Of a stretch of 45,195 nt of DNA, positions 13,977 through 30,289 are shown in pieces. This stretch comes from a virus. Position 1 is the first letter of the stretch; every line of letters begins with the position of its first letter. The position numbers and the translations under genes were made by a program. The notes beneath the pieces are model-generated. The model had not been told where the DNA came from and searched no databases. It saw nothing but the letters and a program-made list of their open reading frames with translations. The stretch is from IMG/VR virus record IMGVR_UViG_3300045988_169289. The stretch is one strand, 5' to 3'.

Positions 13977-13981
13977 TCGGC

Positions 13982-14004
13982 ACTCCCGGATTTTCGCCGA
14001 GAGT
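13982..14004 (-). promoter_or_regulatory. 5' UTR hairpin occluding the SD of the 258-aa gene
   Basis: The minus strand reads ACUCUCGG-cgaaaau-CCGGGAGU (8 bp including one G-U). The 3' arm contains the SD GGGAG and ends 5 nt before the ATG at 13976. Confidence 0.5.
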
Positions 14005-14022
14005 AAACCGAAAGATCAGAAC

Positions 14023-14033
14023 TTTATGGACGG
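14023..14033 (-). promoter_or_regulatory. Conserved motif CCGTCCATAAA, copy 5 (candidate late promoter or RNA element)
   Basis: The plus strand reads tttatggacgg. The motif overlaps the TAA stop of the i-spanin gene and ends 46 nt upstream of the ATG at 13976. Confidence 0.55.
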
Positions 14034-14437
14034 ACTACTTTGGTGAGGGCGTCGTGGTTTGCGGCGCAGCGCTGATAAAGTCGGCCGCATTCCGAACCAG
14101 AGTCAGCCAGTCTTTGAACCAAGCCTTCCAGCTCGGTAACTCTTCGGCTAAGAGCGTCTGTGGAATTTCCACCGGCGGAGCCGTTACCGTCCGCGTGGCG
14201 CAACCTTGCACGAGCCCGATCAAGCTCAGCACGCAAATCGTTGTACTCAGCCTGCGCCAGGTTGATCGTGTCCGTTGCTTTTGAAAGTCCTTCTGCATTT
14301 TTCCTCTCCGCCGCCCGTAGCGCGTCAGACTGCGCCGCCTCCATGAGGGCGATTTCGCGGTCATAGTGTGCGGAGGTCAACCAAGCCCCCGCACCGAAGG
14401 CCAGGACGACCGCCACCATGTAGACGTAATCTTTCAT
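14024..14437 (-). CDS. i-spanin (Rz-like)
   Basis: 137 aa. It has an N-terminal TM segment (YMVAVVLAFGAGAWL) followed by coiled-coil sequence. It lies in the lysis cassette and contains an embedded out-of-frame lipoprotein ORF. Confidence 0.7.
   Translation of the reverse strand: MKDYVYMVAVVLAFGAGAWLTSAHYDREIALMEAAQSDALRAAERKNAEGLSKATDTINLAQAEYNDLRAELDRARARLRHADGNGSAGGNSTDALSRRVTELEGLVQRLADSGSECGRLYQRCAANHDALTKVVRP
14035..14298 (-). CDS. o-spanin (Rz1-like), embedded in the i-spanin gene
   Basis: An alternative frame lies inside 14024..14437. SD GGAGAGG is 5 nt before the ATG at 14298. The signal peptide MQKDFQKQRTRSTWRRLSTTICVLSLIGLVQGC ends in a lipobox-like LVQGC. Confidence 0.6.
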   Translation of the reverse strand: MQKDFQKQRTRSTWRRLSTTICVLSLIGLVQGCATRTVTAPPVEIPQTLLAEELPSWKAWFKDWLTLVRNAADFISAAPQTTTPSPK

Positions 14438-14439
14438 AA

Positions 14440-14721
14440 TCAGCCTGCTATGTAGCCCGCCGGGGCCGGAATGTCTACGAATTCTTTCGCAAATTCCTGA
14501 GGCTTATACGCGCGGAACTCACCGTTCGGCAGCCGCACAATGTAGTCGCCGAGATCTACAGACACCGGCCCTTGCTTAGTGCAAAGTACGCACACATCCT
14601 GACACACCCAACCCAGCTGAACGATACGCGACCCCATCAGGGCGCACAACTCAGGCGAGTCAACATCGCCATCAAAAACAATGGCGTGAACCGTCGTGTA
14701 ACGATACTGATATTCCTTCAT
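14440..14721 (-). CDS. Hypothetical protein (93 aa)
   Basis: ORF tightly packed in the minus-strand operon between the lysis genes. No motif was recognised. Confidence 0.5.
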   Translation of the reverse strand: MKEYQYRYTTVHAIVFDGDVDSPELCALMGSRIVQLGWVCQDVCVLCTKQGPVSVDLGDYIVRLPNGEFRAYKPQEFAKEFVDIPAPAGYIAG

Positions 14722-14733
14722 TTTCTTTTCTCC

Positions 14734-14970
14734 TTACTTCTTGGATTTCTTCGCCTTCTTCACTCGGCGGTCTTGGCGGTAGTCGTAAGCGTCCTTCAGC
14801 ATCCACGCGAAGCAACGCTGGTCTTCCTCGTTTAATTTCACCGAGGCTTCCGCAGCCGTTTCACCATCGCTGATGCGAATATCGAGGTAAATCTTTCCGC
14901 GGTTTTGGCGCATACGAAGATCAGTTCCTTTGCCGGTGAATCCCTCTTTGGACAGAGATTTCTTTTTCAT
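14734..14970 (-). CDS. Hypothetical basic protein (78 aa)
   Basis: The ORF overlaps the endolysin stop by 4 nt and has Lys-rich termini. No motif was recognised. Confidence 0.45.
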   Translation of the reverse strand: MKKKSLSKEGFTGKGTDLRMRQNRGKIYLDIRISDGETAAEASVKLNEEDQRCFAWMLKDAYDYRQDRRVKKAKKSKK

Positions 14971-15344
14971 TTACTACTCCTGTAGTCCCAAAAAGCGTGA
15001 TGCCCACGCACATCAACATGTACGAATGCGTCGTAAAGTCCGACGCCGCCGTCTTTATTGAGCTCCAGGCACAAGTCCTGAAACTCGGAAATCAGAGACG
15101 GATCATCCGGTCGAATGTCCGCCGCCATGCCTTTCGTGTGATACGAGTTCGGTACAGCCCCCTTGATCGTCGCGTTGTATTCCGGACTGCGGTAGCCCGA
15201 ATTCACGAGAACCGGCTTTCCCCACTCGCGCCGGATGCGGTTCAAAAGGTTCAAAAGTTCATCGCGTACCACGTGCGGAAAAGGAGACTTGTGCGGATCC
15301 TTCGGACTCTGCAACTCCTTTTCATCAAAGAAACCGTATTTCAT
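14967..15344 (-). CDS. Endolysin, peptidase M15 (D-Ala-D-Ala carboxypeptidase-like) family
   Basis: The sequence SGYRSPEYNATIKGAVPNSYHTKGMAADI ... FVHVDVR matches the H-x(6)-D ... H zinc-binding pattern of M15 peptidoglycan peptidases. It is adjacent to the holin gene. Confidence 0.8.
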   Translation of the reverse strand: MKYGFFDEKELQSPKDPHKSPFPHVVRDELLNLLNRIRREWGKPVLVNSGYRSPEYNATIKGAVPNSYHTKGMAADIRPDDPSLISEFQDLCLELNKDGGVGLYDAFVHVDVRGHHAFWDYRSSK

Positions 15345-15628
15345 CGGCCGCCTCTTTCTAGGAATCCTTTCAAAATATTCACCCCATCTTTGCCCATCAT
15401 CCCGCCGAGCCCGGCTAATGCGCCACCGGCTTCATCCGGCAAACCGTAGGAATGAGCCGCCATGCAGATCAAAAAACCGATAAAGCCGGACAGCAACCCC
15501 GCCGCGAAAAATTCACCCCACGGAAAAGGTTTTGTTTTGTCCAGTGAGTTCAATCGCATAAGAAACTGAGCCATAGCCGCCACCATGAAGGCAAAGATGT
15601 ATCGGAAGTATTCGTGGTAGTCCTGCAT
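15341..15628 (-). CDS. Holin
   Basis: 95 aa with at least two TM segments (IFAFMVAAMAQFLM and FFAAGLLSGFIGFLICMAA) and a charged C-terminus. It overlaps the endolysin start by 4 nt. Confidence 0.65.
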   Translation of the reverse strand: MQDYHEYFRYIFAFMVAAMAQFLMRLNSLDKTKPFPWGEFFAAGLLSGFIGFLICMAAHSYGLPDEAGGALAGLGGMMGKDGVNILKGFLERGGR

Positions 15629-15634
15629 GGGAAT

Positions 15635-15673
15635 CTCGCCCCTCTTCTAATGGAACCATTTTCGAGGGGCGAG
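15635..15673 (-). promoter_or_regulatory. 5' UTR hairpin occluding the holin SD
   Basis: The minus strand reads CUCGCCCCUC-(19 nt)-GAGGGGCGAG, a perfect 10-bp stem. The 3' arm contains the SD GAGGGG and ends 6 nt before the ATG at 15628. The hairpin starts 7 nt after the conserved motif. Confidence 0.6.
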
Positions 15674-15680
15674 GTGACTA

Positions 15681-15691
15681 TTTATGGACGG
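15681..15691 (-). promoter_or_regulatory. Conserved motif CCGTCCATAAA, copy 4
   Basis: The plus strand reads tttatggacgg. The motif abuts the TAG stop (15692..15694) of the tail tubular B-like gene and ends 52 nt upstream of the holin ATG. Confidence 0.55.
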
Positions 15692-18316
15692 CTACGTAGA
15701 GACGTTGAGCACCAAGCCTTGCACCGTGAGCGGCAACGGGTCGGCCTGCCGGATGCAGACAGAACCTTCGGTTTGCCATGTCGGCGCAAGGCGCAGCTCG
15801 ATTTCCTCTGTTTTGAGTTCCGGAGGTGTCCCCGGTGTTTCTGTCGTGCGCTGCTTGTATTCCGTGAGATTATCGAAGTCCGCCCCCACGAACACGCCCG
15901 ACGAGCGGCAGACCTGCAGGAAGGCTTGAATGATGTTCTTTTTGATTCCTCCTCCAAGCGCCGCCTTGTTCTGCATTGTGAGCGGCAACGTCTTAGCATC
16001 AGCCTCGAAAGGCAATCCGACTATCACTTTGGACGCAGGCGAATCAAGGTCAACCGCTCCATTCGTTACAACTTGTTGAGGCATGACGGCACCATCAGCA
16101 AGGATAGAAACCGTCTTGCCTTCGAGCCAATTCAAACCGGTAACGTGCGTTGTCGGCTCCCCGGAATACACGCCGCCCGAGTCCACAAAGAACGCATCCT
16201 GGATGTTTTCAACGTTCATTGAAGTCATCCGCTCAATGTAGCGTTTCGTCTGCCCGTTGATTTCACGACGAACGACAACGTAAAGATGGTCCTCTTCGCC
16301 CTCTTCCACGGCCGCCACGGACTCAAACACACCGTCGGTAATGTGCTGATGCCAGGCCAAAACTTCCTGTTCTGGAATGTATGTCAGCCCCAAAAGCGAG
16401 CCATCGGAACTGATATACCAAAGAAGCGGTATAGGCGCCAAAGCCAATGCCGAGTCCAAAACATTTTTGAAGTCGAAAAGATGCGAAGCCCGGAGGCACA
16501 GATCCGACGACACAAAGCCGCCCGCCGAATATTCATAAGCAAAGTCTCGGACGTGCCCGCCACGAGCCGCACAATAGACAACGGCATTGCCGACGACCTG
16601 CGGCATCACCCGGCTAGATCCTGTATTACTCTGAGGCTTTGCGGCAATGGACGACGGAGAAATCACACTGCCGTCCTGCGGACTGATGCGGAAAGCCATG
16701 CTGGACGTGAGGAGAATCAGGCTTGTCAGCGAAACGACGTGCTGTACTGCGCTGAATTCTCGACTTGCCATTTGAAAACTCACGCGGTCATCATCGCGAT
16801 ATGGGAGGGAATAACTGAAGTCCGACTCACTGCCCGTACGCGTCATCAGCACACGTTGCGGATCCGAATGCAATCCGGCAAAGATACGCCGCTGCTCGAA
16901 GTACCCGACGGCCCGAGGATAGTCACCAGCGCCACCTGCCGTCGCCGTACCCGTAGCACCGGAGCCCGTACCACCGCGAAATGTCAGTTTCGGTGCCGTG
17001 TACTCGGAACCCGCCGCCCTGATCTGTACGGAAACAACCTTCCCGTTTTCAACCACAGCCCGCAGTTGAGCGCCGGAACCAGTACTGTCGGACACCTCCA
17101 CTGTTGGAACGCCGGAATAGGTGGACAGAGAATACGTCTCTGTTTTTGTCTTCGAACCGCCGAAAATACCCCGCGTCTGCCCGGAAACCACCACCTTCGG
17201 TGAAGTGTAGTTATTCCCTTCGGAAACAATGCGGATGCCTTTCAGCGTCGTATAGTAGTTGGTGTAACTGCCGCCGCTTGAAGACGTTCCGGACGATGAA
17301 TGTCGCTCAAGCACCAACTCAACTTTGCCGCCGTAGCCAGTATTGGCCGAATCGCTGAGCGTCACTGAAAGCGAAGGGTAGCCAGAACGTGAAATCCACA
17401 TCGTGCTAATGTTTTCCACCGGCAAAAGTCCATTGACGCAGTTGGTGTAACCGCTTCCGCCGTTTGTTACCGTCACTGACTTAATGCCGCGAGACGTAGA
17501 GAACACATCATCAAAGCGACGAATCGTTATATCCGTCTTCGGCGTAATGTTGTCGTCGATGATTTCCGGCGTTTCACTATCGCCAATGTAGCCGTAAAGT
17601 CCGCCCTTGTTTTTATAGAAGCGATAGAAGGCTGCGCCCTTCATCACGTCGCAGGTAATCTTGACCGTAGTCCCGTAAGCGTAGAGGTTTGCCACGACAC
17701 TCACCGCTTCACTCGCTTCGCTTTCCTCTGTTTTGTCGGCATTGAGGCAAGATACCCGATACTTCTGAGTGTACTTGTCGGCGTTCGAATCTTCAGCCGC
17801 AGCCGTTGCACGTACCGCCGCTACCCCCGTCGGCGTCGGGAGTTTCGTATTGGTCTCGACTGTTACGATTCGCCAGTCCCGTGCGCCATAGCGACGAATT
17901 TCAGTCGGCGGATAGTTTTCGTGCGCCACCGTCACAATATCGCCGGACTGCACGTAATCCAAGGCGAACAAGTCGGCAGAGTCCCAAGGTGTTGTGACCT
18001 GATACTCCGTCCCGTCGTCATTCACCAGCGTCGCACCGTAGCTATGGAACCGGGCGTACTTGTGTCCGAGCTCAATAATCATCGTCTGCCCGGCACTGTA
18101 CGTGAACGGGATCAGCCGCACTGGGCGCGAGTCGTTACCCACTTTGTTCACGAATTCGAACCCCGGGCGGTTGCGGATAGGTCCCTGCGGCAGGCAGATG
18201 AAGTTTTGGCACTTCAAAAGCCCGGCCTGATACTTCACGTCGTCGCGGCGGCCATACATATCCGGCGAGATTTCGCCCCCGGCAAAGCTAAGCTGAATTA
18301 CTTTATCAACGGCCAT
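15692..18316 (-). CDS. Tail tubular protein B-like (nozzle) protein
   Basis: ORF 15692..18352. SD GGGAGG precedes the ATG at 18316. The N-terminus MAVDKVIQLSFAGGEISPDMYGRRDDVKYQAGLLKCQNFICLPQGPIRNRPGFEF is typical of podovirus tubular B/stabilisation proteins. It follows the tubular A-like gene. Confidence 0.55.
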   Translation of the reverse strand: MAVDKVIQLSFAGGEISPDMYGRRDDVKYQAGLLKCQNFICLPQGPIRNRPGFEFVNKVGNDSRPVRLIPFTYSAGQTMIIELGHKYARFHSYGATLVNDDGTEYQVTTPWDSADLFALDYVQSGDIVTVAHENYPPTEIRRYGARDWRIVTVETNTKLPTPTGVAAVRATAAAEDSNADKYTQKYRVSCLNADKTEESEASEAVSVVANLYAYGTTVKITCDVMKGAAFYRFYKNKGGLYGYIGDSETPEIIDDNITPKTDITIRRFDDVFSTSRGIKSVTVTNGGSGYTNCVNGLLPVENISTMWISRSGYPSLSVTLSDSANTGYGGKVELVLERHSSSGTSSSGGSYTNYYTTLKGIRIVSEGNNYTSPKVVVSGQTRGIFGGSKTKTETYSLSTYSGVPTVEVSDSTGSGAQLRAVVENGKVVSVQIRAAGSEYTAPKLTFRGGTGSGATGTATAGGAGDYPRAVGYFEQRRIFAGLHSDPQRVLMTRTGSESDFSYSLPYRDDDRVSFQMASREFSAVQHVVSLTSLILLTSSMAFRISPQDGSVISPSSIAAKPQSNTGSSRVMPQVVGNAVVYCAARGGHVRDFAYEYSAGGFVSSDLCLRASHLFDFKNVLDSALALAPIPLLWYISSDGSLLGLTYIPEQEVLAWHQHITDGVFESVAAVEEGEEDHLYVVVRREINGQTKRYIERMTSMNVENIQDAFFVDSGGVYSGEPTTHVTGLNWLEGKTVSILADGAVMPQQVVTNGAVDLDSPASKVIVGLPFEADAKTLPLTMQNKAALGGGIKKNIIQAFLQVCRSSGVFVGADFDNLTEYKQRTTETPGTPPELKTEEIELRLAPTWQTEGSVCIRQADPLPLTVQGLVLNVST

Positions 18317-18935
18317 ACCAGCCTCCCATTTCCTCCGGAAGGCGCATATCACCCGTATAAGGCGTTCGTGCCATATCCACCGAAGTATCCTGCAAAGCGT
18401 CGCGCTTAATAGCGTCTTTCACCATCAGCGTGTAAATCTTCAGTTGTTCTTCTGCCATGGAAGCACCAGTCGCCCCGGTAATCGCTGCACCTGCGAGTTT
18501 GGCCGCCAGCAAATGCGCCAGAGCATCGGCAAAATCCGACGGGAACAACTCAGCCGGCACCAGCGCCGTCGTATACCGAGCCCAATCCGCCGGAACGTCC
18601 GTCAGAATCGCCATACCGTAATCCGACCGTTCCAGATGATAGGAATACAGGTCACGGCCCGACTTGTCGAATACACGCTGAATCTGCAGGCAATCTGACG
18701 GATATCCGTAGGCATAGGCCGCACCAATCGGAGTTTCTTTCAGCTGATTGAGTTTGGTGCGCTTTGTGGCAAATGTCCACGCCGTTTCAGTGAGAATACG
18801 GTTAAGCGCCAACGGGTAGAACCGGGCACAATGATCCGCCTGCGGAGAACCTTCGGGCGGATCAATGGAAGTCACCGTGCCCGTATCGCCGAGATACGAC
18901 AGCGCGATGTTACAAATATCGACAACGGTAGCCAT
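18306..18935 (-). CDS. Tail tubular protein A-like / head-tail adaptor
   Basis: 209 aa. The N-terminus MATVVDICNIALSYLGDTGTVTSID...CARFYPLALNRILTETAWTFA matches a pattern I associate with podovirus adaptor/tubular A proteins. Its position after the capsid genes fits. Confidence 0.5.
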   Translation of the reverse strand: MATVVDICNIALSYLGDTGTVTSIDPPEGSPQADHCARFYPLALNRILTETAWTFATKRTKLNQLKETPIGAAYAYGYPSDCLQIQRVFDKSGRDLYSYHLERSDYGMAILTDVPADWARYTTALVPAELFPSDFADALAHLLAAKLAGAAITGATGASMAEEQLKIYTLMVKDAIKRDALQDTSVDMARTPYTGDMRLPEEMGGWYGR

Positions 18936-18945
18936 AGGGCCTCCT

Positions 18946-18975
18946 ATGAAAACGGGGAGCCGTCAGACTCCCCGT
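18946..18975 (-). terminator. Intrinsic (probably partial) terminator after the capsid genes
   Basis: The minus strand reads ACGGGGAG-ucugacgg-CUCCCCGU followed by UUUCA. It lies between the 133-aa capsid-associated gene and the tubular A-like gene. Confidence 0.55.
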
Positions 18976-19027
18976 AAAACTGCGCACCGCCAGCCGTCAG
19001 ACCAGCGGAGAGATAAGGATCACCTCC

Positions 19028-19429
19028 TTAAGCAGCGTAGTTCGGATTCGCTTCATAATCCCCGATTCGCTTCCCGCGCGGGCTATCCGGACGGAGCGTC
19101 ACGCCGGCAGACACCTTGCCAGACATGGACGTGCCCGCAAACACCAACTTGGTGTACTGGGGTAAGCCCTGCGGAATCGGGATATTGATCCCACCACCGT
19201 CCGTGAGGTCAGTCAGCTTGTAGGAAAGGATTTCCGTGAACGTGGAGTTATCGGAACTGCCCTGAAGCGCAACGCTTGAGAGCCCCGTCACCGCACCGAC
19301 GTTGCGGACGTAGATATAGCCGACACCTTCGGAAATACCGGCCTTACCAATATCAAGAACCTTCGAATCCTTGCTTGCGCCGGAAAGCGTCAGTTCATTG
19401 GCATACATGGTCAAAAAATCAACATGCAT
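19028..19429 (-). CDS. Putative head decoration/cement protein (133 aa)
   Basis: ORF 19028..19573. SD GGGAGAAAG precedes the internal ATG at 19429, which removes the overlap with the capsid gene. It lies immediately downstream of the major capsid gene. Confidence 0.4.
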   Translation of the reverse strand: MHVDFLTMYANELTLSGASKDSKVLDIGKAGISEGVGYIYVRNVGAVTGLSSVALQGSSDNSTFTEILSYKLTDLTDGGGINIPIPQGLPQYTKLVFAGTSMSGKVSAGVTLRPDSPRGKRIGDYEANPNYAA

Positions 19430-19442
19430 CGTTCTTTCTCCC

Positions 19443-20441: not shown

Positions 20442-20450
20442 GCTTTCCTC

Positions 20451-21137: not shown

Positions 21138-21454
21138 TTGTTTTCCTCTCGCATTGAATTGATCTGCTCTTCAAGCCCGGCCGAGCGAAGTCGCCGGAGA
21201 ATGTCAAGCCCTACATCGCGCCGAGCACTGAGGAGCATCATTCGCATCGGATCAGTACTCGTCACCGAGTCCGTCTGCCCCGTAAGGGAGAGAACCCAGT
21301 GCATTGCCCGACGGCCGAACTCGGTTTCCATCAGGCTTTTCAGCGCGTTGTCGAGTTTCTTTTCTTCCTGCTTTCGCAGCCGTTCTTCTTCTGCGCGGGC
21401 TTCTTCCTCTTCGAAAATGCCCTGCATCCGAGTGTCTGCCATTGTTTCCGTCAT
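21134..21454 (-). CDS. Small conserved head-module protein (Bbp19-like position)
   Basis: 106 aa between portal and scaffold. It overlaps the scaffold start as ATGA. It has a Glu-rich N-terminus followed by RRAMHWVLSLTG...ARRDVGLDILRRL. Confidence 0.4.
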   Translation of the reverse strand: MTETMADTRMQGIFEEEEARAEEERLRKQEEKKLDNALKSLMETEFGRRAMHWVLSLTGQTDSVTSTDPMRMMLLSARRDVGLDILRRLRSAGLEEQINSMREENK

Positions 21455-21463
21455 CCCATCACC

Positions 21464-21474
21464 TTTATGGACGG
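21464..21474 (-). promoter_or_regulatory. Conserved motif CCGTCCATAAA, copy 3
   Basis: The plus strand reads tttatggacgg. The motif starts 2 nt after the portal TAA stop and ends 9 nt before the ATG at 21454. Its CCGUC can pair with GACGG, which overlaps the last base of that start codon (AUGACGG). Confidence 0.5.
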
Positions 21475-21476
21475 CC

Positions 21477-23439: not shown

Positions 23440-23441
23440 AG

Positions 23442-23759: not shown

Positions 23760-23762
23760 TTG

Positions 23763-24008
23763 TTAGCCCCCCCCCAACGTGTTGCGCTTGCGGAATAACT
23801 TTCCGCCTTCACCGTCCGCAGCACCAGACGTACCAGCGTCCATTGCCGCGTCTTCACCACCTGTTGAAGGCTTACTTGCGTTCGCGTCGTCTGCCCCTGT
23901 GGATTCAGCACTAGCAGGCTTGCCAGGAGTGCCGTTGTTACGCCTACGGGACGTAATGCGAGAAACAATATTGGCAAGGTCCATTTTCAAAGCAAGGCCA
24001 TGGCTCAT
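23763..24008 (-). CDS. Small charged protein 1 of 3 (ends ...KLFRKRNTLGGG)
   Basis: 81 aa. SD GGAGGTGA lies upstream. It has a low-complexity Gly/Ala/Asp middle and a basic LGGG C-terminus. Confidence 0.45.
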   Translation of the reverse strand: MSHGLALKMDLANIVSRITSRRRNNGTPGKPASAESTGADDANASKPSTGGEDAAMDAGTSGAADGEGGKLFRKRNTLGGG

Positions 24009-24078
24009 TTCTTGTCACCTCCAAGCCGATGCTTTCGCAAATGCCGACGTTCCAACTCTTCTGCTGAAGGTTCAGCCA

Positions 24079-24543
24079 TCACAGACTCCTTATAAATGTC
24101 ACCTGACAGCCTGAATGCGGCCGTTTCTGCAAAGCCGCGGCGAGTGGTGCTTGCTCGTCGCAGACCCACTGAAACGACGTACACCCCCGCTTTTTTGCCT
24201 CACGCTCACACATCACAAAAAGCCGTCCGGGCACCGTCGTCCCTCGGTATTCGGGCAATACGAAAATCGTGTCGTTGCAGGCCGTGAGTTCTCCAGAATG
24301 CTGATGAGGCGCGACAAAGATCGACGCAGCCCCCACCGCTTTTTCTCCGTCGTAGGCGACAAAGGCAAACGCCAGCGAGTTTTCGGAGAGTGCGCGGTAG
24401 AAGTCTTCCGTCGGATCAAAGATCGGGCCGTTACCTGATTCGCGGAAATTCGTTTCCAGCAAATCTCGGTGCTTCCGCAGCAGGTCATAACAGGACATGA
24501 GTACGTATCGCATACCCGCAGTTTCAGCGGGGCGACGGTACAT
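24079..24543 (-). CDS. GNAT-family N-acetyltransferase-like protein
   Basis: 154 aa. ...AFVAYDGEKAVGAASIFV...IFVLPEYRGTTVPGRLFVMCEREAKKRGC resembles the GNAT acetyl-CoA-binding core. The alternative start M11 (ATG at 24513) lies 1 nt after a CCCGC-N7-GCGGG hairpin (24515..24531). Confidence 0.55.
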   Translation of the reverse strand: MYRRPAETAGMRYVLMSCYDLLRKHRDLLETNFRESGNGPIFDPTEDFYRALSENSLAFAFVAYDGEKAVGAASIFVAPHQHSGELTACNDTIFVLPEYRGTTVPGRLFVMCEREAKKRGCTSFQWVCDEQAPLAAALQKRPHSGCQVTFIRSL

Positions 24544-24575
24544 TTATGGACGACAATCGCTCAATCGTCCATAAA
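24543..24575. promoter_or_regulatory. Divergent pair of the conserved motif (copies 2 and 2b) forming a 33-bp palindrome
   Basis: tttatggacga (24543..24553), 11 nt, then tcgtccataaa (24565..24575). One copy faces the GNAT gene on the minus strand and the other faces the Com-like gene on the plus strand. Confidence 0.6.
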
Positions 24576-24630
24576 CTTCAAAGCCCTGCAAATACGATGC
24601 GTTCATGAAATTTCATGGGAGGGTACTGCA

Positions 24631-24843
24631 ATGGAAGTTCAAGTCCGTTGCCGATGCGGCAAACGCCTTTTCGACCTTTCGCTAGACAGGCCTCCAGGCG
24701 GACGCATCTACATCTTGTGTCGCTGTAAAACGATGAACGTCATCGACCTTTCCGCGTATTCCAATCTGCAGGCCCATTCGGAGCCTGTTTCAAAAGAGGC
24801 CCCTGAGCCCACTTCTCAGCGCCAAGCGAGCGCACAATCCTGA
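24631..24843 (+). CDS. Com-like zinc-finger protein (candidate translational regulator)
   Basis: 70 aa. SD GGGAGGG lies 8 nt upstream. MEVQVRCRCGKRLFDLSLDRPPGGRIYILCRCKTMNVIDL resembles phage Mu Com (RCxxCxKLLF ... IRCPRCK...I.L), but with CxC instead of CxxC knuckles. Confidence 0.45.
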   Translation: MEVQVRCRCGKRLFDLSLDRPPGGRIYILCRCKTMNVIDLSAYSNLQAHSEPVSKEAPEPTSQRQASAQS

Positions 24844-24856
24844 GAACCTTGAGTTC

Positions 24857-24879
24857 CATAGCAAAAGGAGTTTGCTATG
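24857..24879 (+). promoter_or_regulatory. Translation-occluding hairpin over the SD and start codon of the 209-aa gene
   Basis: CAUAGCAAA-AGGAG-UUUGCUAUG is a perfect 9-bp stem. The 5-nt loop is the SD AGGAG, and the AUG (24877..24879) is the last three stem bases. Confidence 0.7.
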
Positions 24880-25506
24880 GCTGAATTTGCTTCTAAAGGT
24901 GTTGCCGGTAGCGCCCTTGGTCTGGCTATCGGTGGCTTGTCTGCTGCTTTGCTGCAGGGCGGCAACGGTGGAATCCTCGGCGGCCTCTTTGGTGGAAACA
25001 ACTGCGCCCCGCAGATGGCCGCGATGGGCGTCATTGCTGAAAAGGACGCCAAGATCGCCGAGCTCACTTCGCAGAAGTACTCGGACAATCGGGACGCGAC
25101 GCTTTATCAGGCGACGCGCTCTGAAAACGAGAAACTCGAAAATCGTCTGATGGCTTTCATCACGCCGCTTTCTCAGGAATCCGCGAGCAACCGCGAACGC
25201 GTCGCCGTGCTTGAAGCTCAGCAAGCGAAGAACGGTGAAATCGCCGACCTGCGCGAAAAGCTCATTCGCTCCGAACTCGGTGCCAAGATCGATAGCGTTG
25301 CTCAGACGTGCGGCTGTGGTATTGCCCAGCTCAACAACGCCGTTGCCGGTATCAACAACACGTTGAACCAGATCACCCACACGGTTATCCCGCGCACGGC
25401 GATCTGCCCCAAAGTGATGGAACGTTACAACAGCTGGACTGCGCCCACAGCCGCGGCTCCGGCGGTTCAGCCGGTGACCGGCAGCATCAACGTCAACCGG
25501 GGTTAA
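24877..25506 (+). CDS. Glycine-zipper / coiled-coil protein of unknown function (209 aa)
   Basis: The N-terminus is KGVAGSALGLAIGGLSAALLQGGNGGILGGLFGG (a glycine-zipper-like hydrophobic segment). A long heptad-like charged region follows, then a Cys-containing C-terminal domain. Confidence 0.6.
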   Translation: MAEFASKGVAGSALGLAIGGLSAALLQGGNGGILGGLFGGNNCAPQMAAMGVIAEKDAKIAELTSQKYSDNRDATLYQATRSENEKLENRLMAFITPLSQESASNRERVAVLEAQQAKNGEIADLREKLIRSELGAKIDSVAQTCGCGIAQLNNAVAGINNTLNQITHTVIPRTAICPKVMERYNSWTAPTAAAPAVQPVTGSINVNRG

Positions 25507-25509
25507 GCC

Positions 25510-25845
25510 ATGAGAATGCCGATTGGAAACTTGCCTGCGGTGGTTGTGGAATTTGCTCAGCAAGTCCTCATCCCCGCGGCAGAAAAGCAGGGCGGCTCTC
25601 TGCCCTTCGCCGTCGGCATCGTCTCGGGGCTCGTCGCACAGCGGGCCCCGGCGATGATCGAACCTTATCTGCCGATGCTCAAGTCATTAGGAGCGGTGGA
25701 TGAGCAAAACCGCATCGACGTGGACTTGCTGTACGGCGAAGCCTCAAAGAATCTCGAAGCGCATCCGTTCTCCATCGGGCCTTATAAGCCTGACCGAGGT
25801 GACTTAGATGCGCTGAAGGAAATCATGAACCGGCATGGAGAATGA
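25510..25845 (+). CDS. Hypothetical protein (111 aa), cassette member
   Basis: The ORF starts 4 nt after the 209-aa gene stop. No motif was recognised. Confidence 0.5.
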   Translation: MRMPIGNLPAVVVEFAQQVLIPAAEKQGGSLPFAVGIVSGLVAQRAPAMIEPYLPMLKSLGAVDEQNRIDVDLLYGEASKNLEAHPFSIGPYKPDRGDLDALKEIMNRHGE

Positions 25846-26027
25846 TTATGGAAATGAAGGAACTTATGAAAGCCCGCGCGGAGCAATCCATGCACTGCCT
25901 GCTCGAAAAGATCGACAAGGTATGCGATGAGGCCCGCGACAGTGGCGGCTTAAGCGGTGAGGACGTTCGCACGCTTGAAAAAGCGTGGTGCGCGGTAGCC
26001 ACCATCAAGGCCGTGTGCAAGGAGTAA
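25842..26027 (+). CDS. Hypothetical small helical protein (about 60 aa), cassette member
   Basis: It overlaps the upstream gene as ATGA. SD GGAGA suggests an alternative start at 25848. It is followed by a terminator. Confidence 0.45.
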   Translation: MIMEMKELMKARAEQSMHCLLEKIDKVCDEARDSGGLSGEDVRTLEKAWCAVATIKAVCKE

Positions 26028-26032
26028 CGAAA

Positions 26033-26062
26033 AACCCCGGTTCATCGCCGGGGTTCTCTTTG
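26033..26062. terminator. Bidirectional intrinsic terminator between the plus-strand cassette and the minus-strand AT-rich genes
   Basis: AACCCCGG-ttcatcg-CCGGGGTT is followed by ctcttt on the plus strand. On the minus strand the same stem is followed by TTTCGTT. Confidence 0.7.
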
Positions 26063-26127
26063 CAATCTCAGTTCTACGAGTCGCTACTGAAACGGGGTTC
26101 TCTTTTTTTACGACAGCCGTGCCTCAA

Positions 26128-26649
26128 TCAATAGATTGCCGGAATCGGTATTCCGCCGATAAAGGGTGGAATGCCATTTTTATTCTCACGACGCCGAATC
26201 ATTTTTTTAAGATTTCGCTGTACTGTCGGCGCGTTCTGATTCTTCGCGAGCCATACCCGCGCCGCCTGCATCAACCCGTGGCAGAAGTCCAAGACGTCCG
26301 TGAGATAGGTCTCGTTGCAAACATTGTTGCTGAGGTGTATCCGGCCGTTTGGAATCGTAAGGATCAGCTTTTTGTTGCCTTTGCGGTCATCCACAGTCCC
26401 CGTATGAAGGAGATCATTGCGAAGCTGCTTCATCAGTTCGGGTGTCGCCAATGAGAAAAACTCTTGCGGCAGGTTCTTTTCGCACCATGCTACGTAGTTC
26501 ACATTCTTCGCCCAAAAGCCCTCTGTTTCTAAGGCCGCGCACATATCAGGCAGAGTAAGCGCTGCCATCGTTGCGACGACATACAGTTCGGCCTTAAGCG
26601 CCCTGTCTATCTCGTCCAGCAGCATTTCGACGCAGTTCGGCTCCGACAT
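26128..26649 (-). CDS. Candidate HEPN-like (DUF4145-like) protein, 173 aa
   Basis: SD AAGAGGAGAA precedes the ATG at 26649. The protein is helical and carries an Rx4H motif RNDLLH at aa 77-82, the hallmark spacing of HEPN RNase domains. The gene is AT-rich. Confidence 0.35.
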   Translation of the reverse strand: MSEPNCVEMLLDEIDRALKAELYVVATMAALTLPDMCAALETEGFWAKNVNYVAWCEKNLPQEFFSLATPELMKQLRNDLLHTGTVDDRKGNKKLILTIPNGRIHLSNNVCNETYLTDVLDFCHGLMQAARVWLAKNQNAPTVQRNLKKMIRRRENKNGIPPFIGGIPIPAIY

Positions 26650-26830
26650 ACGGTTCTCCTCTTTGAGTTCTTACCCAATCGACAAGATCAAAGAGGTCAA
26701 GATCGGACTCGCCATACCGGTCGACCGAATAAGTGCGGACAACAAGGCGGCCTTTATCGTTAACCCACAGCTCTACGGGGTAGCCTTCCTTAAGTTCCCG
26801 AACGGGGAGCACTGCGATCTTTGTTTCCAT
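26594..26830 (-). CDS. Small protein (78 aa) overlapping the HEPN-like gene by 56 nt
   Basis: The ORF lies in the same AT-rich island and its 3' end overlaps the start of 26128..26649. No motif was recognised. Confidence 0.4.
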   Translation of the reverse strand: METKIAVLPVRELKEGYPVELWVNDKGRLVVRTYSVDRYGESDLDLFDLVDWVRTQRGEPYVGAELRRNAAGRDRQGA

Positions 26831-26861
26831 GATCTTTCTCCATTGTCCGAATTATGCCGCA

Positions 26862-27149
26862 TCAGCAGTCCACCGCCCTCGCAAACTCAGGGAGTGTCTT
26901 CAGGTACTCGTAACCTTGGCGAATGAAGTTCTCCGAGCCGTCTGCGACGGAGGGGGTGAAAGCAAAGCGGGCAGTTTTCAAAAGCCTAGTCTGATCGTAA
27001 TAGCCGACATTGAGCATCAGGGCTTCTTTATCCCCTGACACTTTTTCAATTTTGACATAGCACTTTTCTACGACGACTTCCTTTTCAATAAAGTCATCCG
27101 AAGAGTACGCATAAACCTTTTTCATGGTTAGCTTGGTTTCCAACGCCAT
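26862..27149 (-). CDS. Hypothetical protein downstream of the tailspike (95 aa)
   Basis: ORF 26862..27161. SD TGGAG precedes the ATG at 27149, which lies just after the tailspike TAA stop. The C-terminus is ...NFIRQGYEYLKTLPEFARAVDC. Confidence 0.5.
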   Translation of the reverse strand: MALETKLTMKKVYAYSSDDFIEKEVVVEKCYVKIEKVSGDKEALMLNVGYYDQTRLLKTARFAFTPSVADGSENFIRQGYEYLKTLPEFARAVDC

Positions 27150-27151
27150 GA

Positions 27152-30100
27152 TTAACTCCAAGTTTGTATTTTTGACAGCGCTTCAGCGCCTTCAAAATCG
27201 AGGTTGTTGCTGTTGCTTAAAATCTTTGTATTCGTAGCTTTTTTTCCCACGAATACATGGAAAAACTCAGAAGCCCCGTCCAGGTTTTGAACATCAAATC
27301 TATTGCTGTCTATGTCTATAGCGACTTGACTTGTTTCTATGTTTTTGTTCAAAACAGAAACTACGTGTATCACTCCCGCCTTCGTATTATCGGCGGAATT
27401 TCCACGACGACTTTCGTTCAAAAAGCTGTTGCCACGAATTCGCACGAGACATTTACATGGAGCATCGTGAAGGAAATATATTGAAAGGTAAGCGGCAAAT
27501 TCAGAACCACTATTATCGGATGGCCCCGCAGAATCAAAGCAATTATTTTCTATGTTTATAACCCTTGTGAGAACAGGACGGATATATAGCGGGCCCAATT
27601 CTCCGCTCTCCGCGCACGGAACAGCCCCAACAAAAGAATTCGTGATTGAGATTTCTTCAAAGGCTGTACCATAATACTTTGCGTAAGGTGCCGGCGATAT
27701 AGCGCAATTATTTAACTTTAAAATTTTTCCTGTATTTGAAATTACATTTCCGCTATTGAACCACCAGAAAACTCTAGAGTCGGAGATATAAAGAGCGTTA
27801 ATATAAGACGATTCCCAAAAAACAAATCCAGGAACATCCGAATTGACAATTGTCATGTTCCCTATGTATTTCGCCCCTATCAGGAATCCGGGAGTGTTTT
27901 GATCAGAGCGATCAACGTATCGTTTTACATTAGTCGAATTACAAATTCGAATGCTATGAATATCACTAGCCGCAAAGTGATAACCTGTTTGCCCGATTAT
28001 CTGATTATCGGACAGAGTAATGACCTTCGCCCCCATCGACAGGCCGTCCAAGACGCTGTTTGTCACGCTCATCTTCAGTACGTCGCCATGCGAGTCGCAC
28101 GAATACTTTCCCGAGTAGGATTTAAAAACGCAGCGATCAATGAAGACGTTATCCGAGTTGATAGATACCAATGTGCCGTCAAGTAAAAATCTTGCCCCCC
28201 CGGACGCGAAGCAGTGCCAAACGCATTGTGCATTGGTTTGCTTGACGTAAATATTTTTGCAGCCAAACGAGACGATACCATACCGAACGTTGCCACCATT
28301 ATTAACGACGGTCGCGCCATCGATGGATACGCCATGGCAAAGATTCGTCGACAATGCAATGTAAGGGTTTGCATCAGCGAATCGAACGCCGTCAATAGTA
28401 AGATCAACAACATTGCTAAAAACCAAAAGTTCCACGACTTCGGTTTTTAGCTTTGTAGAAAATCTTCCGCCAATAACCCTAATGTTAGATAAGGTATTTT
28501 TAAAAAGCAGAATATCAGAGCTGTCCTTATCGAAAGGCAGGGTTAGCGTATCAATTAGCTTAAGTTCATTTCCATCAATTTCGTTGACTCTTAAAAGTTC
28601 GCCTCTTTTATAATATTTTCTCGATGTGTCTATATTAGTATTCTTGTCGACAATAGCCGCAAGTTTATAGCCCGCATTCTCTTTTTCTTCTGTCAAGAAA
28701 AGATCGTGGTTTGTATCGGCCGCAAGGCACGAGACAGTAATTACAACCGATTCTCCATACGCAACCGTCGCCGAAACAGTGACTACGGGGTTATTGCAAG
28801 TAAAATCGGTGTTACTGTCGCTATCATGAAACGTCGGATTATAATCGACAGCATATTCATCGCTTGATAGTTCCCTGTCTTTTATGTACACATTCGTGAC
28901 GGTAATACTTGTTATTCCGAATACAGGTATTTGGTATCTATTACCCGCTGAACGTTTAAACTCAAAAATTCTCGTCGAGCGTACGGCTACGCTTTTGCTA
29001 AGATTGGCTCTGTCGTATGTTACGTTTGTATCACCACACACGAAAATATGCGTGTTATTTTCGGCAATAATATCCGCGCCGCCAAAATCGAAAACTTTAT
29101 TTGACTTCTTATTGATAACCGCATCAGACACCAGATAGGAGCGGGAGGAAAATTTAACCACCCCCGCATCGCTATCAACTGCCAGCTGAATAGCTTGTCG
29201 GTCATCGGTTACGCCATCCCCAACGGCGCCAAACTGATCTACCGAAACCGTGTCCCCATAGATAAGCAACTCAGCCAGCAACCCGCCGAGCAGTTCTTCA
29301 GAAAACTTCTCGGTCGACTCCACGATCCGGTAGACCGCGCCACCTCCATCCCCCGGCTCATAGTATCCCTGTGTAACCGCCGTCATCCCGGGCGCTAGGA
29401 ACTTCGCCACCTTCATATCGGCAACGGACTTAAACACGTGGGGCTTCGCGGCGAGCCAGTCGAGTACCGGCAACGGCGACGTACCGCCCGGCATTATCAG
29501 GGACTGTCCCCCCGTAATCGCGTTTGCCTGCTCCGCCCACCCCTTGGCCTCGGCCGCATAGTCCTTCGATTTCAGCAGCTCTTCGAGGTTCTTCGCGATC
29601 GCCGCAATGGCCTCAGCGTTTTCCGCCGTGACACCGACCGACTTGATATTTTCGGACACGGTGACGATCTGATCCTTAAATGCGAGGAGTTTGTCGGCGT
29701 ACTCTTTGGAAGTGGCCGCAGAGGCGGCGGCGTTCGTCTCGGACTGCAGAGCCTTAGCCGCCGCATCAAGCGCAGAAGCCGTTGCTTCGAGCAACTTATC
29801 GCGTAGCTGCCGTGGGGTGATGGTGTCCGTGGGATCAGTAATGAGCGCGCGATTGACTTGCTCGACAAGCTGCTGACAGAGAATCGTCAGCCGGTCGAGC
29901 GAATCATTGAGCACCGTCGGAAAGAACGCCCCTCGGTTTGTGAAAACCGTCGGCTGTACATAGGCTTCGCCCGAGATAACGGCAAGCGCCGCGCCTTTTA
30001 CCAGTGGCTCCTTAAGCGTAATCTTGCCGCCAGGGTTGACATCTTGGTCGTCATTAAGGACGCAGACGTACGCATTTGGGTTAAGAACCGCATCAACGCC

Positions 30101-30226
30101 ATGGGGCGGCGCAACGTGAACTTCGGCATCCTCAGACTTCAGTAATTTGAAAGAAAAAGAAAACTGCGTCTGCACACCGTCGCCGACATAAATATCGCTT
30201 CGGCGAAGTTGAGATTGAATAGCCAT
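27152..30226 (-). CDS. Tailspike / tail fibre with right-handed beta-helix (pectate-lyase-like) depolymerase domain
   Basis: 1024 aa. The N-terminal virion-anchor region is MAIQSQLRRSDIYVGDGVQTQFSFSF... The motif DQFGAVGDGVTDDRQAIQLAVDS (about aa 330) is typical of the pectate_lyase_3 / tailspike fold. The C-terminal two thirds are Asn/Ser/Val-rich and AT-rich. Confidence 0.8.
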   Translation of the reverse strand: MAIQSQLRRSDIYVGDGVQTQFSFSFKLLKSEDAEVHVAPPHGVDAVLNPNAYVCVLNDDQDVNPGGKITLKEPLVKGAALAVISGEAYVQPTVFTNRGAFFPTVLNDSLDRLTILCQQLVEQVNRALITDPTDTITPRQLRDKLLEATASALDAAAKALQSETNAAASAATSKEYADKLLAFKDQIVTVSENIKSVGVTAENAEAIAAIAKNLEELLKSKDYAAEAKGWAEQANAITGGQSLIMPGGTSPLPVLDWLAAKPHVFKSVADMKVAKFLAPGMTAVTQGYYEPGDGGGAVYRIVESTEKFSEELLGGLLAELLIYGDTVSVDQFGAVGDGVTDDRQAIQLAVDSDAGVVKFSSRSYLVSDAVINKKSNKVFDFGGADIIAENNTHIFVCGDTNVTYDRANLSKSVAVRSTRIFEFKRSAGNRYQIPVFGITSITVTNVYIKDRELSSDEYAVDYNPTFHDSDSNTDFTCNNPVVTVSATVAYGESVVITVSCLAADTNHDLFLTEEKENAGYKLAAIVDKNTNIDTSRKYYKRGELLRVNEIDGNELKLIDTLTLPFDKDSSDILLFKNTLSNIRVIGGRFSTKLKTEVVELLVFSNVVDLTIDGVRFADANPYIALSTNLCHGVSIDGATVVNNGGNVRYGIVSFGCKNIYVKQTNAQCVWHCFASGGARFLLDGTLVSINSDNVFIDRCVFKSYSGKYSCDSHGDVLKMSVTNSVLDGLSMGAKVITLSDNQIIGQTGYHFAASDIHSIRICNSTNVKRYVDRSDQNTPGFLIGAKYIGNMTIVNSDVPGFVFWESSYINALYISDSRVFWWFNSGNVISNTGKILKLNNCAISPAPYAKYYGTAFEEISITNSFVGAVPCAESGELGPLYIRPVLTRVINIENNCFDSAGPSDNSGSEFAAYLSIYFLHDAPCKCLVRIRGNSFLNESRRGNSADNTKAGVIHVVSVLNKNIETSQVAIDIDSNRFDVQNLDGASEFFHVFVGKKATNTKILSNSNNLDFEGAEALSKIQTWS

Positions 30227-30264
30227 GGGCGAGACCTCAGAATTTAGTCTCTGCAGTCTCGCCC
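30227..30264 (-). promoter_or_regulatory. 5' UTR hairpin abutting the tailspike start codon
   Basis: The minus strand reads GGGCGAGAC-(20 nt)-GUCUCGCCC, a perfect 9-bp stem. The 3' arm ends at the base before the ATG at 30226 and covers part of the SD region (GAGGUCUCGCCC). Confidence 0.6.
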
Positions 30265-30277
30265 CGTGGCCCCGGCG

Positions 30278-30289
30278 TTTATGGACGGG
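30278..30289 (-). promoter_or_regulatory. Conserved motif CCCGTCCATAAA, copy 1
   Basis: The plus strand reads tttatggacggg. The motif abuts the TerL TAA stop (30290..30292) and ends 51 nt upstream of the tailspike ATG. Confidence 0.55.

Follow-up and report, generated by a model that had tools for sequence, protein, structure and literature searches.

Several phages and bacteria place a regulatory site where a −35 element would otherwise stand. Phage T4 middle promoters combine a TAnnnT-type sigma-70 −10 element with a box specific to the phage, the MotA box, which takes the place of the −35 element and is read by a phage protein; MotA acts together with AsiA in 'sigma appropriation'. Lambda CII promoters and PhoB pho boxes also have the activator site in the −35 region alongside a usable −10 hexamer, the site comprising two repeats in each case (TTGC-N6-TTGC for CII and two 11-bp pho-box repeats for PhoB). 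T7 uses its own RNA polymerase with a 23-bp promoter extending across the start site, and its class III promoters are phi6.5, phi9, phi13 and phi17. The late promoters of Mu (Plys, PI, PP and Pmom) carry a recognizable −10 hexamer and no −35 hexamer, and are served by host sigma-70 holoenzyme and the C protein of the Mor/C family, whose activators have 100–150 amino acids, a C-terminal helix–turn–helix (HTH) and a site that overlaps the −35 region (PMC2582627). RinA, ArpU and LtrC of Gram-positive temperate phages are reported to be small activators whose genes directly precede the small terminase gene and which control late morphogenesis and lysis genes (PMC3152322).

We computationally analysed a window of 45,195 nucleotides (the whole stretch of DNA) from a temperate BPP-1-like podovirus, a prophage of the gut bacterium Duodenibacillus massiliensis. 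The window holds six exact copies of CGTCCATAAA (0.04 expected) and none of 100 dinucleotide-preserving shuffles contained more than one, in agreement with the rarity claimed for this word by a sequence-only reading. That reading placed the sites correctly, but drew them 1–2 nt too long by including flanking bases, and the longer form that it called usual, YCCGTCCATAAA, is true of only two of the six copies; the preceding base is C in four copies and T in two. The core GTCCATA occurs 10 times (2.4 expected). All six copies are oriented along transcription and head late gene blocks. Four lie on the minus strand beside the stop codon of the preceding gene, as claimed: the copy of the internal-virion-protein block (14023..14032) shares bases with the TAA stop (at 14024) of the 137-aa gene upstream, and those of the holin/endolysin (15681..15690), scaffold/protease and capsid (21464..21473) and tailspike (30278..30287) blocks follow the stops of tail tubular protein B, portal and large terminase, which finish 1, 3 and 2 nt ahead of the motif at 15692, 21477 and 30290, respectively. 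From the motif end to the downstream start codon, four of the six copies measure 46, 52, 55 and 51 nt, as in the range of 46–55 nt given earlier. The remaining two form the divergent pair previously seen between the GNAT and Com-like starts, with 13 nt between them: 24543..24552 on the minus strand (GNAT/small-protein/portal block) and 24566..24575 on the plus strand (opposite-strand Com-like cassette). A near copy of uncertain status, CGTCCATAGA (32931..32940, minus strand), precedes the genes for the resolvase, the HTH protein and the terminase; here an nAnnnT hexamer lies at 18 nt, not 17.

Each of the six copies is followed, at exactly 17 nt, by a hexamer of the form nAnnnT, for which the background frequency is 0.0507 and the chance of six out of six at this distance is approximately 2e-8. 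The conserved positions match −11A and −7T of sigma-70 promoters, which places the 10-mer at −39 to −30. Profiled for information content, 33 sites from 11 phages gave 1.8 bits at the −11A and −7T equivalents and no signal upstream of the motif, consistent with the earlier remark that no TTGACA-like element accompanies the copies. Given this separate hexamer downstream of every copy, the likeliest role of CGTCCATAAA is that of the upstream (−35-position) half in six late promoters, which supports the earlier view of the copies as late-promoter elements facing gene blocks. The base approximately 7 nt past the hexamer (the predicted transcription start) is A at five of the six sites. Canonical sigma-70 promoters were not above chance in the late region, and neither an RNA polymerase, for which the sequence-only reading had also found no candidate, nor a sigma factor, gp55-like or other, was detected among the phage gene products.

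On the minus strand, the hexamers are TACTCT for the internal-virion block (14000..14005; predicted start ~13993 (A), ATG 13976), GAAAAT for holin/endolysin (15658..15663; predicted start ~15651 (A), holin ATG 15628) and GAGACT for the tailspike (30255..30260; predicted start ~30248 (A), ATG 30226). The plus-strand Com-like cassette has TACGAT (24593..24598), a predicted start at ~24605 (A) and an ATG at 24631 with GGGAGGG ahead of it. At the portal junction, the scaffold/capsid hexamer AACAAT (21441..21446, minus strand) overlaps an ATG of a 106-aa gene, and the predicted start (~21434) falls within this gene, which counts against the promoter model. The GNAT site (24511..24525, minus strand) consists of GAAACT (24525–24520), 6 nt and the ATG (24513–24511). 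This hexamer-to-ATG distance is 6–7 nt at the terminase-to-GNAT junction in every clade, and the GNAT transcript is therefore predicted to be leaderless. In several cases the −10 hexamer is weak.

The tailspike, holin and internal-virion promoters would each be nested in a hairpin with the ribosome-binding site (RBS) on its 3′ arm. In the internal-virion hairpin (13976..14012, minus strand; z −2.46), the 5′ arm contains the −10 hexamer and the 3′ arm the RBS GGGAG, and the structure can form only in read-through RNA; the holin hairpin (15635..15673, minus strand; z −4.33) has the holin RBS in its 3′ arm (GAGGGGCGAG) and the predicted transcription start in its loop; and the tailspike hairpin (30221..30271, minus strand; z −4.89) has the −10 hexamer in its 5′ arm and the RBS and start codon in its 3′ arm. 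Motif-to-ATG leaders folded with z values of −2.5 to −7.1 in 12 of 13 cases, the predicted locally initiated RNAs were almost without structure, and the portal and GNAT junctions had no comparable hairpin. With the promoter inside the hairpin, the RBS would therefore be free in locally initiated RNA and hidden in read-through RNA. At one junction the hexamer TACCTT doubles as the RBS complement, so the hairpin could account for part of its conservation. An intrinsic terminator (GGGGAG...CTCCCC then TTTT; 18949..18975, minus strand) follows the capsid block, in the sole large co-directional late gap that lacks the 10-mer; it is also present in BPP-1, L091, L092, L093 and L095.

Related phages retain this arrangement at syntenic junctions, where the sequence-only reading had suggested looking: with 54–66% portal identity, GTCCATA, the 17-nt spacer and the hexamer are kept at the same three junctions despite differing flanking sequence. 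Across related loci, the exact 10-mer is followed by the hexamer at 17 nt in 30 of 34 distinct contexts, compared with 4 of 70 for the antisense control GT[CT]CATA (about the background rate; three Com-cassette copies left out). At these junctions the more distant clades, BPP-1 among them, use other motifs, and each motif has a fixed spacing of its own: GGTGCCCGTGCC in BPP-1 (four copies, hexamer 15 nt on), GTGCGCATCA (16 nt), TG[CT]CATAAAG (CATAAA 17 nt ahead of the hexamer), GGGTATCAGTGA (three copies, 16 nt at two of them) and TGCACGTACC (three copies, 15 nt). Some of the sites ahead of the small terminase gene lack −11A (TTCAAT in L091; TGGAAT in L093 and L095) or −7T (TACAAC in L092). The Com cassette on the opposite strand has its own motif copy in its own orientation, and L041 has a terminator directly upstream of a motif copy.

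The motif is probably read by the product of a 130-aa ORF (32073..32465, minus strand), a homologue of BPP-1 Bbp27, which the sequence-only reading had nominated and which is the best candidate for the activator. Its conserved HTH domain lies in the last ~75 residues (about 32073–32300), and most family members are only ~75 aa long. The HTH gene runs with its stop into the start of the small terminase gene (ATG 32085), and in the clades examined it is found just ahead of small terminase. The protein occurs in BPP-1 and in 60 of the 87 related loci, which together represent every clade examined, and its gene is the only non-structural one tested that is common to all clades; phiV10 has neither the protein nor the repeated motif. 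Recognition helix and motif change together, even at 86–88% DNA identity: BPP-1, L091 and L095 have both the helix SKGA[IV]AKIC and the motif GGTGCCCGTGCC in common, and L093 (88% DNA identity to L095) has SKWAIGRIC and, at the sites found, TGCACGTACC. This covariation is imperfect, as L047 has a window-like helix but the TG[CT]CATAAAG motif, and the L092 helix is a few residues from window-type helices with a very different motif. The domain gave only generic below-threshold matches (HTH_23, HTH_38 and Sigma70_r4_2), and the structure model is confident only at residues ~71–111. As the HTH gene adjoins the terminase genes, its product could alternatively be a packaging protein.

We therefore favour, with a probability of approximately 0.7, a model in which the 10-mer is the upstream element (~−39 to −30) of six late promoters and the HTH protein reads it. 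Each promoter would combine the motif with a weak −10 hexamer of the sigma-70 type (nAnnnT), separated by a 17-bp spacer, with transcription starting ~7 nt past the hexamer. Host sigma-70 holoenzyme would read the hexamer, and the small HTH protein, bound at the motif and possibly touching RNA polymerase, would substitute for a TTGACA-type −35 element. Encoded, in this model, at the end of the early operon immediately ahead of the terminase genes, it would turn on the tailspike, GNAT-to-portal, scaffold/capsid, lysis and internal-virion blocks and the opposite-strand Com-like cassette, presumably late.

The same architecture might be read by something else (a different phage protein, a regulator of the host or an alternative sigma factor), leaving the HTH protein to packaging or another task. 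We regard this as unlikely, although it is the alternative to which the gene overlap with small terminase, the generic family matches and the helix–motif pairing of L047 lend weight. One L047 site, CTGTCATAAA, matches a PhoB half-site consensus, but each promoter has a single motif and not pho-box tandem repeats. The clade-by-clade change of motif with HTH helix, also among close relatives, argues for the HTH protein, as do the lack of any other shared non-structural gene among those tested and of a detectable sigma factor. Far less probable is the proposal of the sequence-only reading that the 10-mer serves by itself as a late promoter of the T4 TATAAATA kind, with a −10 element only, used by a phage sigma-like factor with a start 5–10 nt downstream. 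CATAAA, the AT-rich 3′ half of the 10-mer, bears a loose resemblance to a −10 hexamer and there is no upstream TTGACA element, but the separate −11A/−7T hexamer at a fixed 17 nt puts the motif in the −35 slot, the ATG 6–7 nt past the hexamer fits that register alone, the equivalent motifs GGTGCCCGTGCC (BPP-1) and GTGCGCATCA are GC-rich and unfit as melting elements, and the search for a sigma factor, gp55-like or other, found none.

An action in RNA, also raised by the sequence-only reading, seems just as improbable. The motif would be a processing site, or be bound by an RNA-binding protein (the Com-like zinc-finger protein or a different one) that opens the hairpins downstream; it is always in sense orientation, and the RBS-sequestering hairpins after several copies recall the action of Mu Com on mom mRNA. 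Yet the Com-like gene is limited to the closest relatives and phages lacking that gene retain the motif, an RNA site would not require nAnnnT at a fixed 17 nt, such hairpins are missing at the portal and GNAT junctions, and the L041 motif comes after a terminator. The opposite-strand cassette would still need a promoter, for which its intergenic space holds little else. We give least credence to the copies being boundary or linker sequences of recombinational module exchange with no role in expression. The lysis cassette, tailspike block and Com cassette are inserts each headed by a copy, but modules carrying their own promoter would give the same pattern, 10 bp is too short for homologous recombination, and strict orientation, fixed hexamer spacing and covariation with a DNA-binding protein would not be needed.

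The proposed regulation by a −35-slot motif and a small activator is of a type familiar among phages, with a protein family and motif that are undescribed. The position of the HTH gene just before small terminase is as in RinA, ArpU and LtrC phages; NCBIfam models of these families gave no sequence match to the HTH protein, the hosts here are Gram-negative, and RinA has one promoter upstream of terS whereas 4–6 are spread over the late region here. The promoters resemble CII and PhoB promoters in pairing an activator site in the −35 region with a −10 hexamer, but have a single word each. T4 middle promoters share the sigma-70-type −10 with a phage-specific box in the −35 place; no MotA or AsiA homologue was detected in the phage, and the candidate here is a small HTH protein with weak resemblance to sigma region 4. 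Unlike in T7, no RNA polymerase of its own was detected in the phage, and its proposed promoters are bipartite with a sigma-70-type −10, but as with the T7 class III promoters the sites stand before the portal-containing block, scaffold/capsid, internal virion proteins and tail fibre (the last in BPP-1), each directly past the previous stop codon, and a terminator follows the capsid block as in T7. The site of Mu C is a 16-bp imperfect dyad, centred at −43.5 and bound by a dimer, in contrast to the single asymmetric word of 10–12 bp at ~−39 to −30, without a dyad, found here, and the HTH protein had no match to the Mor family in Pfam or PDB. As in Mu, however, several proposed late promoters have a −10 and no −35 hexamer, with a candidate small HTH activator at the −35 region.

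The 10-mer CGTCCATAAA is present in exactly six copies in the 45,195-base window, all exact matches, on the minus strand at 14023–14032, 15681–15690, 21464–21473, 24543–24552 and 30278–30287 and on the plus strand at 24566–24575. Shuffles that preserved dinucleotides gave an expectation of 0.04 copies, and none contained more than one, confirming the over-representation claimed from sequence alone. The placing of the copies relative to stop and start codons also agrees with the sequence-only reading, and the longer form YCCGTCCATAAA, said to be the usual one, is found at two of the six copies and not at the others. Allowing one mismatch added two sites in the window, including a near copy (CGTCCATAGA; 32931–32940) on the minus (late) strand.

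The portal of the prophage is 99% identical to that on a contig of Duodenibacillus massiliensis (Sutterellaceae), and the nearest isolated phages are those of the Bordetella BPP-1 group (portal identity of 45%); a near-identity DNA search with the late region gave no match among 50,697 phage records, and a scan found no tRNA genes. The immunity and early regions are lambda-like, with an S24 repressor (36784–37446, plus strand), a Cro-like gene (36455–36676, minus strand) and genes for replication and recombination. After the early region, the minus strand carries a resolvase-like gene, the gene for a 130-aa HTH protein, the small and then the large terminase genes, the tailspike block, GNAT with small proteins and a T7-type portal, the scaffold/protease and a GP7-type capsid protein, tail tubular proteins A and B, the lysis cassette, the internal virion proteins and the integrase. 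Relative to the related phages compared below, the window has three additional modules (tailspike block, Com-like cassette on the opposite strand and lysis cassette), each headed by its own copy of the motif. In line with the earlier reading, scans of the window ORFs examined found no phage RNA polymerase, whether of the single-subunit (T7) type or by any RNA polymerase domain; all window proteins longer than 500 aa are structural. The internal-virion-protein position is occupied by a 2078-aa protein (4853–11089, minus strand) with 'polyvalent protein' domains (PBECR5 nuclease, ddrB-like ParB domain and LPD3). A group II intron reverse transcriptase/maturase (RVT_1 and GIIM) lies near one prophage end (43392–44720, minus strand), and a 95% identical copy at a different site in the closely related locus L001 (5684–7009, between the tailspike block and the Com cassette) suggests that the intron is mobile within these phages.

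An information-content profile of 33 aligned sites from 11 phages had zero information upstream of the motif, where no TTGACA-like −35 hexamer was found, and two 1.8-bit peaks downstream (an A and, four bases on, a T) that correspond to positions 2 and 6 of a hexamer (nAnnnT) starting exactly 17 nt past the 10-mer. All six window copies have this hexamer at 17 nt (TACTCT, GAAAAT, AACAAT, GAAACT, TACGAT and GAGACT); given an nAnnnT background of 0.0507 on the late strand, the chance that all six would have it at a single fixed spacing is ~2 × 10−8. In related loci, the exact 10-mer occurs in 34 distinct contexts, 30 of which likewise have the hexamer at 17 nt; the other four are intragenic sites in more distant phages or are antisense. 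In an antisense control using GT[CT]CATA, 7 of 73 contexts had the hexamer, a rate near background given that three of the seven were Com-cassette copies. In sigma-70 promoters, sigma region 2 flips out two bases of the −10 hexamer, −11A and −7T, and the canonical spacer is 17 bp. Because the hexamer has both bases at this spacing, the 10-mer would lie at about −39 to −30, with its last six bases (CATAAA) at the place of TTGACA; the base 7 nt past the hexamer is A at five of the six window sites. A consensus scan of the late region found no canonical sigma-70 promoters above chance, and the feature of an activator-dependent sigma-70 promoter with a replaced −35 (that is, a −10 hexamer at a fixed canonical distance) is present. 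The copies are thus best read as late promoters, the role that had been suggested for them; the evidence is comparative only, yet unusually consistent.

The related set comprised 80 viral contigs and 7 genome contigs with related portals (87 loci), 45 of which contain the exact 10-mer. When syntenic junctions in related phages were checked as the sequence-only reading had proposed, the motif was present at the junctions from large terminase to GNAT (a), from portal to the next small gene (b) and from tail tubular protein B to internal virion protein (c), with phages of ~61% portal identity having one late-strand copy at each; the flanks are unrelated between clades. Elsewhere, the same junctions have variants such as TGTCCATAGA, TGTCCATATA, TGTCCATACA and TGTTCATAAA, and because these replace the 10-mer at the same places, the conserved core is Y-GTCCATA-N-R. 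The degenerate motifs were missed by k-mer counts in the related loci and were revealed by reading the syntenic junctions. A 35%-identity clade has GTGCGCATCA at all three junctions (spacing of 16 nt), and the related locus L047 has TG[CT]CATAAAG with CATAAA at 17 nt. BPP-1 has four exact late-strand copies of GGTGCCCGTGCC, preceding terS, GNAT, bbp19 and the tail-fibre gene and followed after 15 nt by TAnnnT or AAAACT, with an ATG 6–7 nt past the hexamer at three of the four promoters. Three copies each were found of GGGTATCAGTGA in a Castellaniella prophage (L092; 16 nt at two of them) and of TGCACGTACC in the related locus L093 (15 nt). Such words, each private to a phage clade, point to a phage-encoded reader.

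The register bears directly on other readings of the motif. The sequence-only reading had likened it to −10-only elements of the T4 type, a register that is wrong for a −35-slot element: a separate −10-like hexamer lies 17 nt downstream, and the motifs of sister clades are GC-rich. Nor was a phage sigma-like factor of the T4 gp55/gp33 type recovered; Pfam, PHROG and NCBIfam scans of the window ORFs examined gave no significant sigma-family match, and sub-threshold Sigma70_r4_2 matches to the HTH protein were the sole sigma-like matches. An ECF-type promoter, with 'CGTC' as the −10 and a GGAAC-like −35 upstream, is rejected on the lack of conservation in the upstream region, and an activator site far upstream of a core promoter is rejected because start codons at the portal junction are only 9–21 nt from the motif. 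Action at the RNA level through the Com-like protein, which would resemble translational activation of the Mu Com/mom type, had also been proposed; among the related loci, only the closest ones (L001 and L004 among them) have the gene, so its product is not a general factor, and the motif is kept in clades that lack it.

The candidate reader is the HTH protein (32073–32465, minus strand); of the 87 related loci, 60 encode a homologue, as does BPP-1 (Bbp27, 78 aa). Its gene directly precedes that of the small terminase in the window and in the related clades in which terS was located (BPP-1, L091, L092, L093 and L095 among them) and is the sole tested non-structural gene common to all clades, and phiV10 (epsilon15-like) has neither an HTH homologue nor a repeated motif. 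A profile search recovered 394 relatives (typically 73–80 aa), mostly from Betaproteobacteria with some from Pseudomonadaceae, all unnamed or hypothetical by label. Only the last ~75 residues of the window ORF are conserved; the Pfam matches of this domain, all below threshold, were to generic HTH families, with Sigma70_r4_2 recurring consistently, and a PDB sequence search with the protein gave weak matches to ECF sigma region 4 (E = 0.2–0.8). The AlphaFold model (mean pLDDT of 59) is confident only for a three- to four-helix HTH, and Foldseek found no match to it in the PDB below E = 0.2. BPP-1, L091 and L095 have a common recognition helix (SKGA[IV]AKIC) and all use GGTGCCCGTGCC; L093, as near to L095 in DNA identity (88%) as L091 is (86%), has the helix SKWAIGRIC and the word TGCACGTACC at the sites found. 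The GTCCATA clades have xSTV in the helix in common, and the GTGCGCATCA clade has IRTLRDI. This covariation of helix and motif makes the protein, already nominated from sequence, the best candidate reader, although the match is imperfect (L047 and L092 have window-like helices yet different words).

Further observations concern the surroundings and distribution of the HTH gene. In BPP-1-type phages, the motif copy before the small terminase gene lies within the last codons of the HTH gene (KTVPV encoded by AAGACGGTGCCCGTGCC; 10222–10235 in L091 and ~10218–10232 in both L093 and L095); the HTH protein of L093 ends in KSVHV, the DNA word being altered along with the tail, and the hexamers at terS-front sites (TTCAAT and TGGAAT) are without −11A. 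In the 61%-identity clade, AGTCCATAAA is conserved where the resolvase-like gene begins, ahead of the HTH gene (at 3351, 6231, 6422, 6425 and 3558 in L011, L017, L018, L022 and L023, respectively), with GATACT 16 nt rather than 17 nt past it; together with the window near copy at 32931, it could represent a weak autoregulatory promoter. The repressor/Cro intergenic region (36670–36790) contains four TCCAT(T)T-like words (aaTCCATTTAA, taTCCATTTGA, tGTCCATAGc and gaGTCCATTTAG), one with the GTCCATA core but without a −10 hexamer at 17 nt, that could be operators or a resemblance by chance. HTH homologues also occur in small integrative elements on a Cupriavidus necator contig (L090) and a metagenome contig (L094) that encode a primase as well as an integrase, with a small-terminase-like gene in addition in L090, and have no portal or capsid genes; these may be phage satellites using the same switch.

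The late junctions differ in how the promoter meets the first gene. At junction (a), the ATG lies 6–7 nt past the hexamer in all clades examined, BPP-1 and the new loci among them, so a leaderless GNAT mRNA is predicted, a geometry that shifts the window GNAT start to 24513 and is indirectly in keeping with the 6–8 nt expected between hexamer and transcription start in an activator-dependent sigma-70 promoter. At junction (b), an ATG of the small gene overlaps the hexamer (ACAATG or GAGAATG), and in some relatives the motif is even inside the small gene and read as Val-His-Lys; transcripts from here would probably serve the scaffold and capsid genes. The longest-ORF starts in the window are probably wrong for GNAT (24079–24543) and the small terminase (31633–32145), the most likely starts being 24513 and, overlapping the HTH stop, 32085 (MPKLTPKQERFVQEY). 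In BPP-1 (L088, 26255–26318), the annotation of bbp26 (small terminase) probably places the start 21 codons upstream of the true one, as the motif, a 15-nt spacer, AAAACT and 6 nt lead to a predicted leaderless start at MKNAST.

The motif-to-ATG leaders of 46–55 nt at junction (c) and before the tailspike and holin genes instead contain a strong hairpin. Consensus folding of junction leaders (RNAalifold on a MAFFT alignment) detected no structure, as sequence alignment does not bring the stems into register, and the hairpins were therefore scored by single-sequence folds and shuffles; z scores ranged from −2.5 to −7.1 for 12 of 13 leaders from different phages, the stems of which are unrelated in sequence. 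These hairpins hold the ribosome-binding site in their 3′ arm and the −10 hexamer in their loop or 5′ arm, such that RNA from the predicted start, without the 5′ arm, is nearly unstructured (−0.2 to −5.4 kcal/mol), versus −13 to −34 kcal/mol for read-through RNA at the hairpin junctions. The three hairpins of the window have no T run, whereas their equivalents in the 35%-identity clade and BPP-1 do; the related locus L041 has no hairpin but a terminator directly upstream of the motif. The one large co-directional late gap without the motif (18936–19027, minus strand) has an intrinsic terminator after the capsid block, an arrangement also found in BPP-1, L091, L092, L093 and L095.

In the mechanism that we propose, the HTH protein would be expressed from the early operon, its gene occupying the place that Q has in lambda. 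Bound to the single asymmetric word between −39 and −30, it would enable the sigma-70 holoenzyme to use the weak −10 hexamers, either replacing sigma region 4 or contacting it, so that four to six promoters would fire along the late region. Since no motif copy precedes the terminase genes in the clade of the window, these would be read from upstream, possibly aided by the near copy at 32931 (18-nt spacing). A bolder version, which we consider unlikely, combines a free-standing surrogate of sigma region 4 with a promoter-in-hairpin design: the ~75-aa Bbp27-like protein would take the −35-reading place of sigma-70 region 4, giving the host holoenzyme a phage-private −35 specificity that could be re-tuned by a few helix residues, and the first gene of each late block would be translatable only from locally initiated or leaderless transcripts, read-through RNA leaving it silent. 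The analysis offers a proposed transcription map and late switch for temperate podoviruses of a widespread but unstudied group, to which both BPP-1, the model phage for diversity-generating retroelements, and prophages of Sutterellaceae from the human gut belong, as well as a testable function for ~400 small 'hypothetical' proteins. It also suggests start-codon corrections (leaderless GNAT and BPP-1 terS), a compact design in which promoter, terminator-like hairpin and ribosome-binding site overlap, and matched activator–promoter pairs of different specificity as possible orthogonal expression parts.

This kind of regulation is already known, with T4 MotA, lambda CII and RinA as related cases and Mu C, a small phage activator of a late promoter with a −10 hexamer and no −35 hexamer, as the clearest example (PMC2582627). 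Mu Mor/C proteins bind as a dimer to a dyad of ~16 bp centred near −43.5, in contrast to the asymmetric 10-bp word at −39 to −30 here, near which the 33-site profile has no conserved partner half-site; Pfam gave no Mor match for ten members of the HTH family (E up to 0.5), and Mor was absent from the PDB sequence and fold matches of the HTH protein. Genes for RinA/ArpU late activators are directly upstream of terS, the same position as here, but an NCBIfam scan (E up to 1) gave no RinA or ArpU match, its only entries being an unrelated family and an ECF-sigma model (E = 0.08). The positions of T7 class III promoters parallel those of the window, but no phage polymerase is present. The system falls outside the Mu C, T4 MotA, lambda CII and RinA families: each site is one asymmetric word, neither dyad nor repeat, and the protein matches none of their sequence families. 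Searchable literature yielded no description of BPP-1 late promoters, these motifs or the function of Bbp27; the motifs and the HTH family therefore appear to be undescribed, and the system as a whole, as judged from sequence comparison, would be a variant of known phage regulation.
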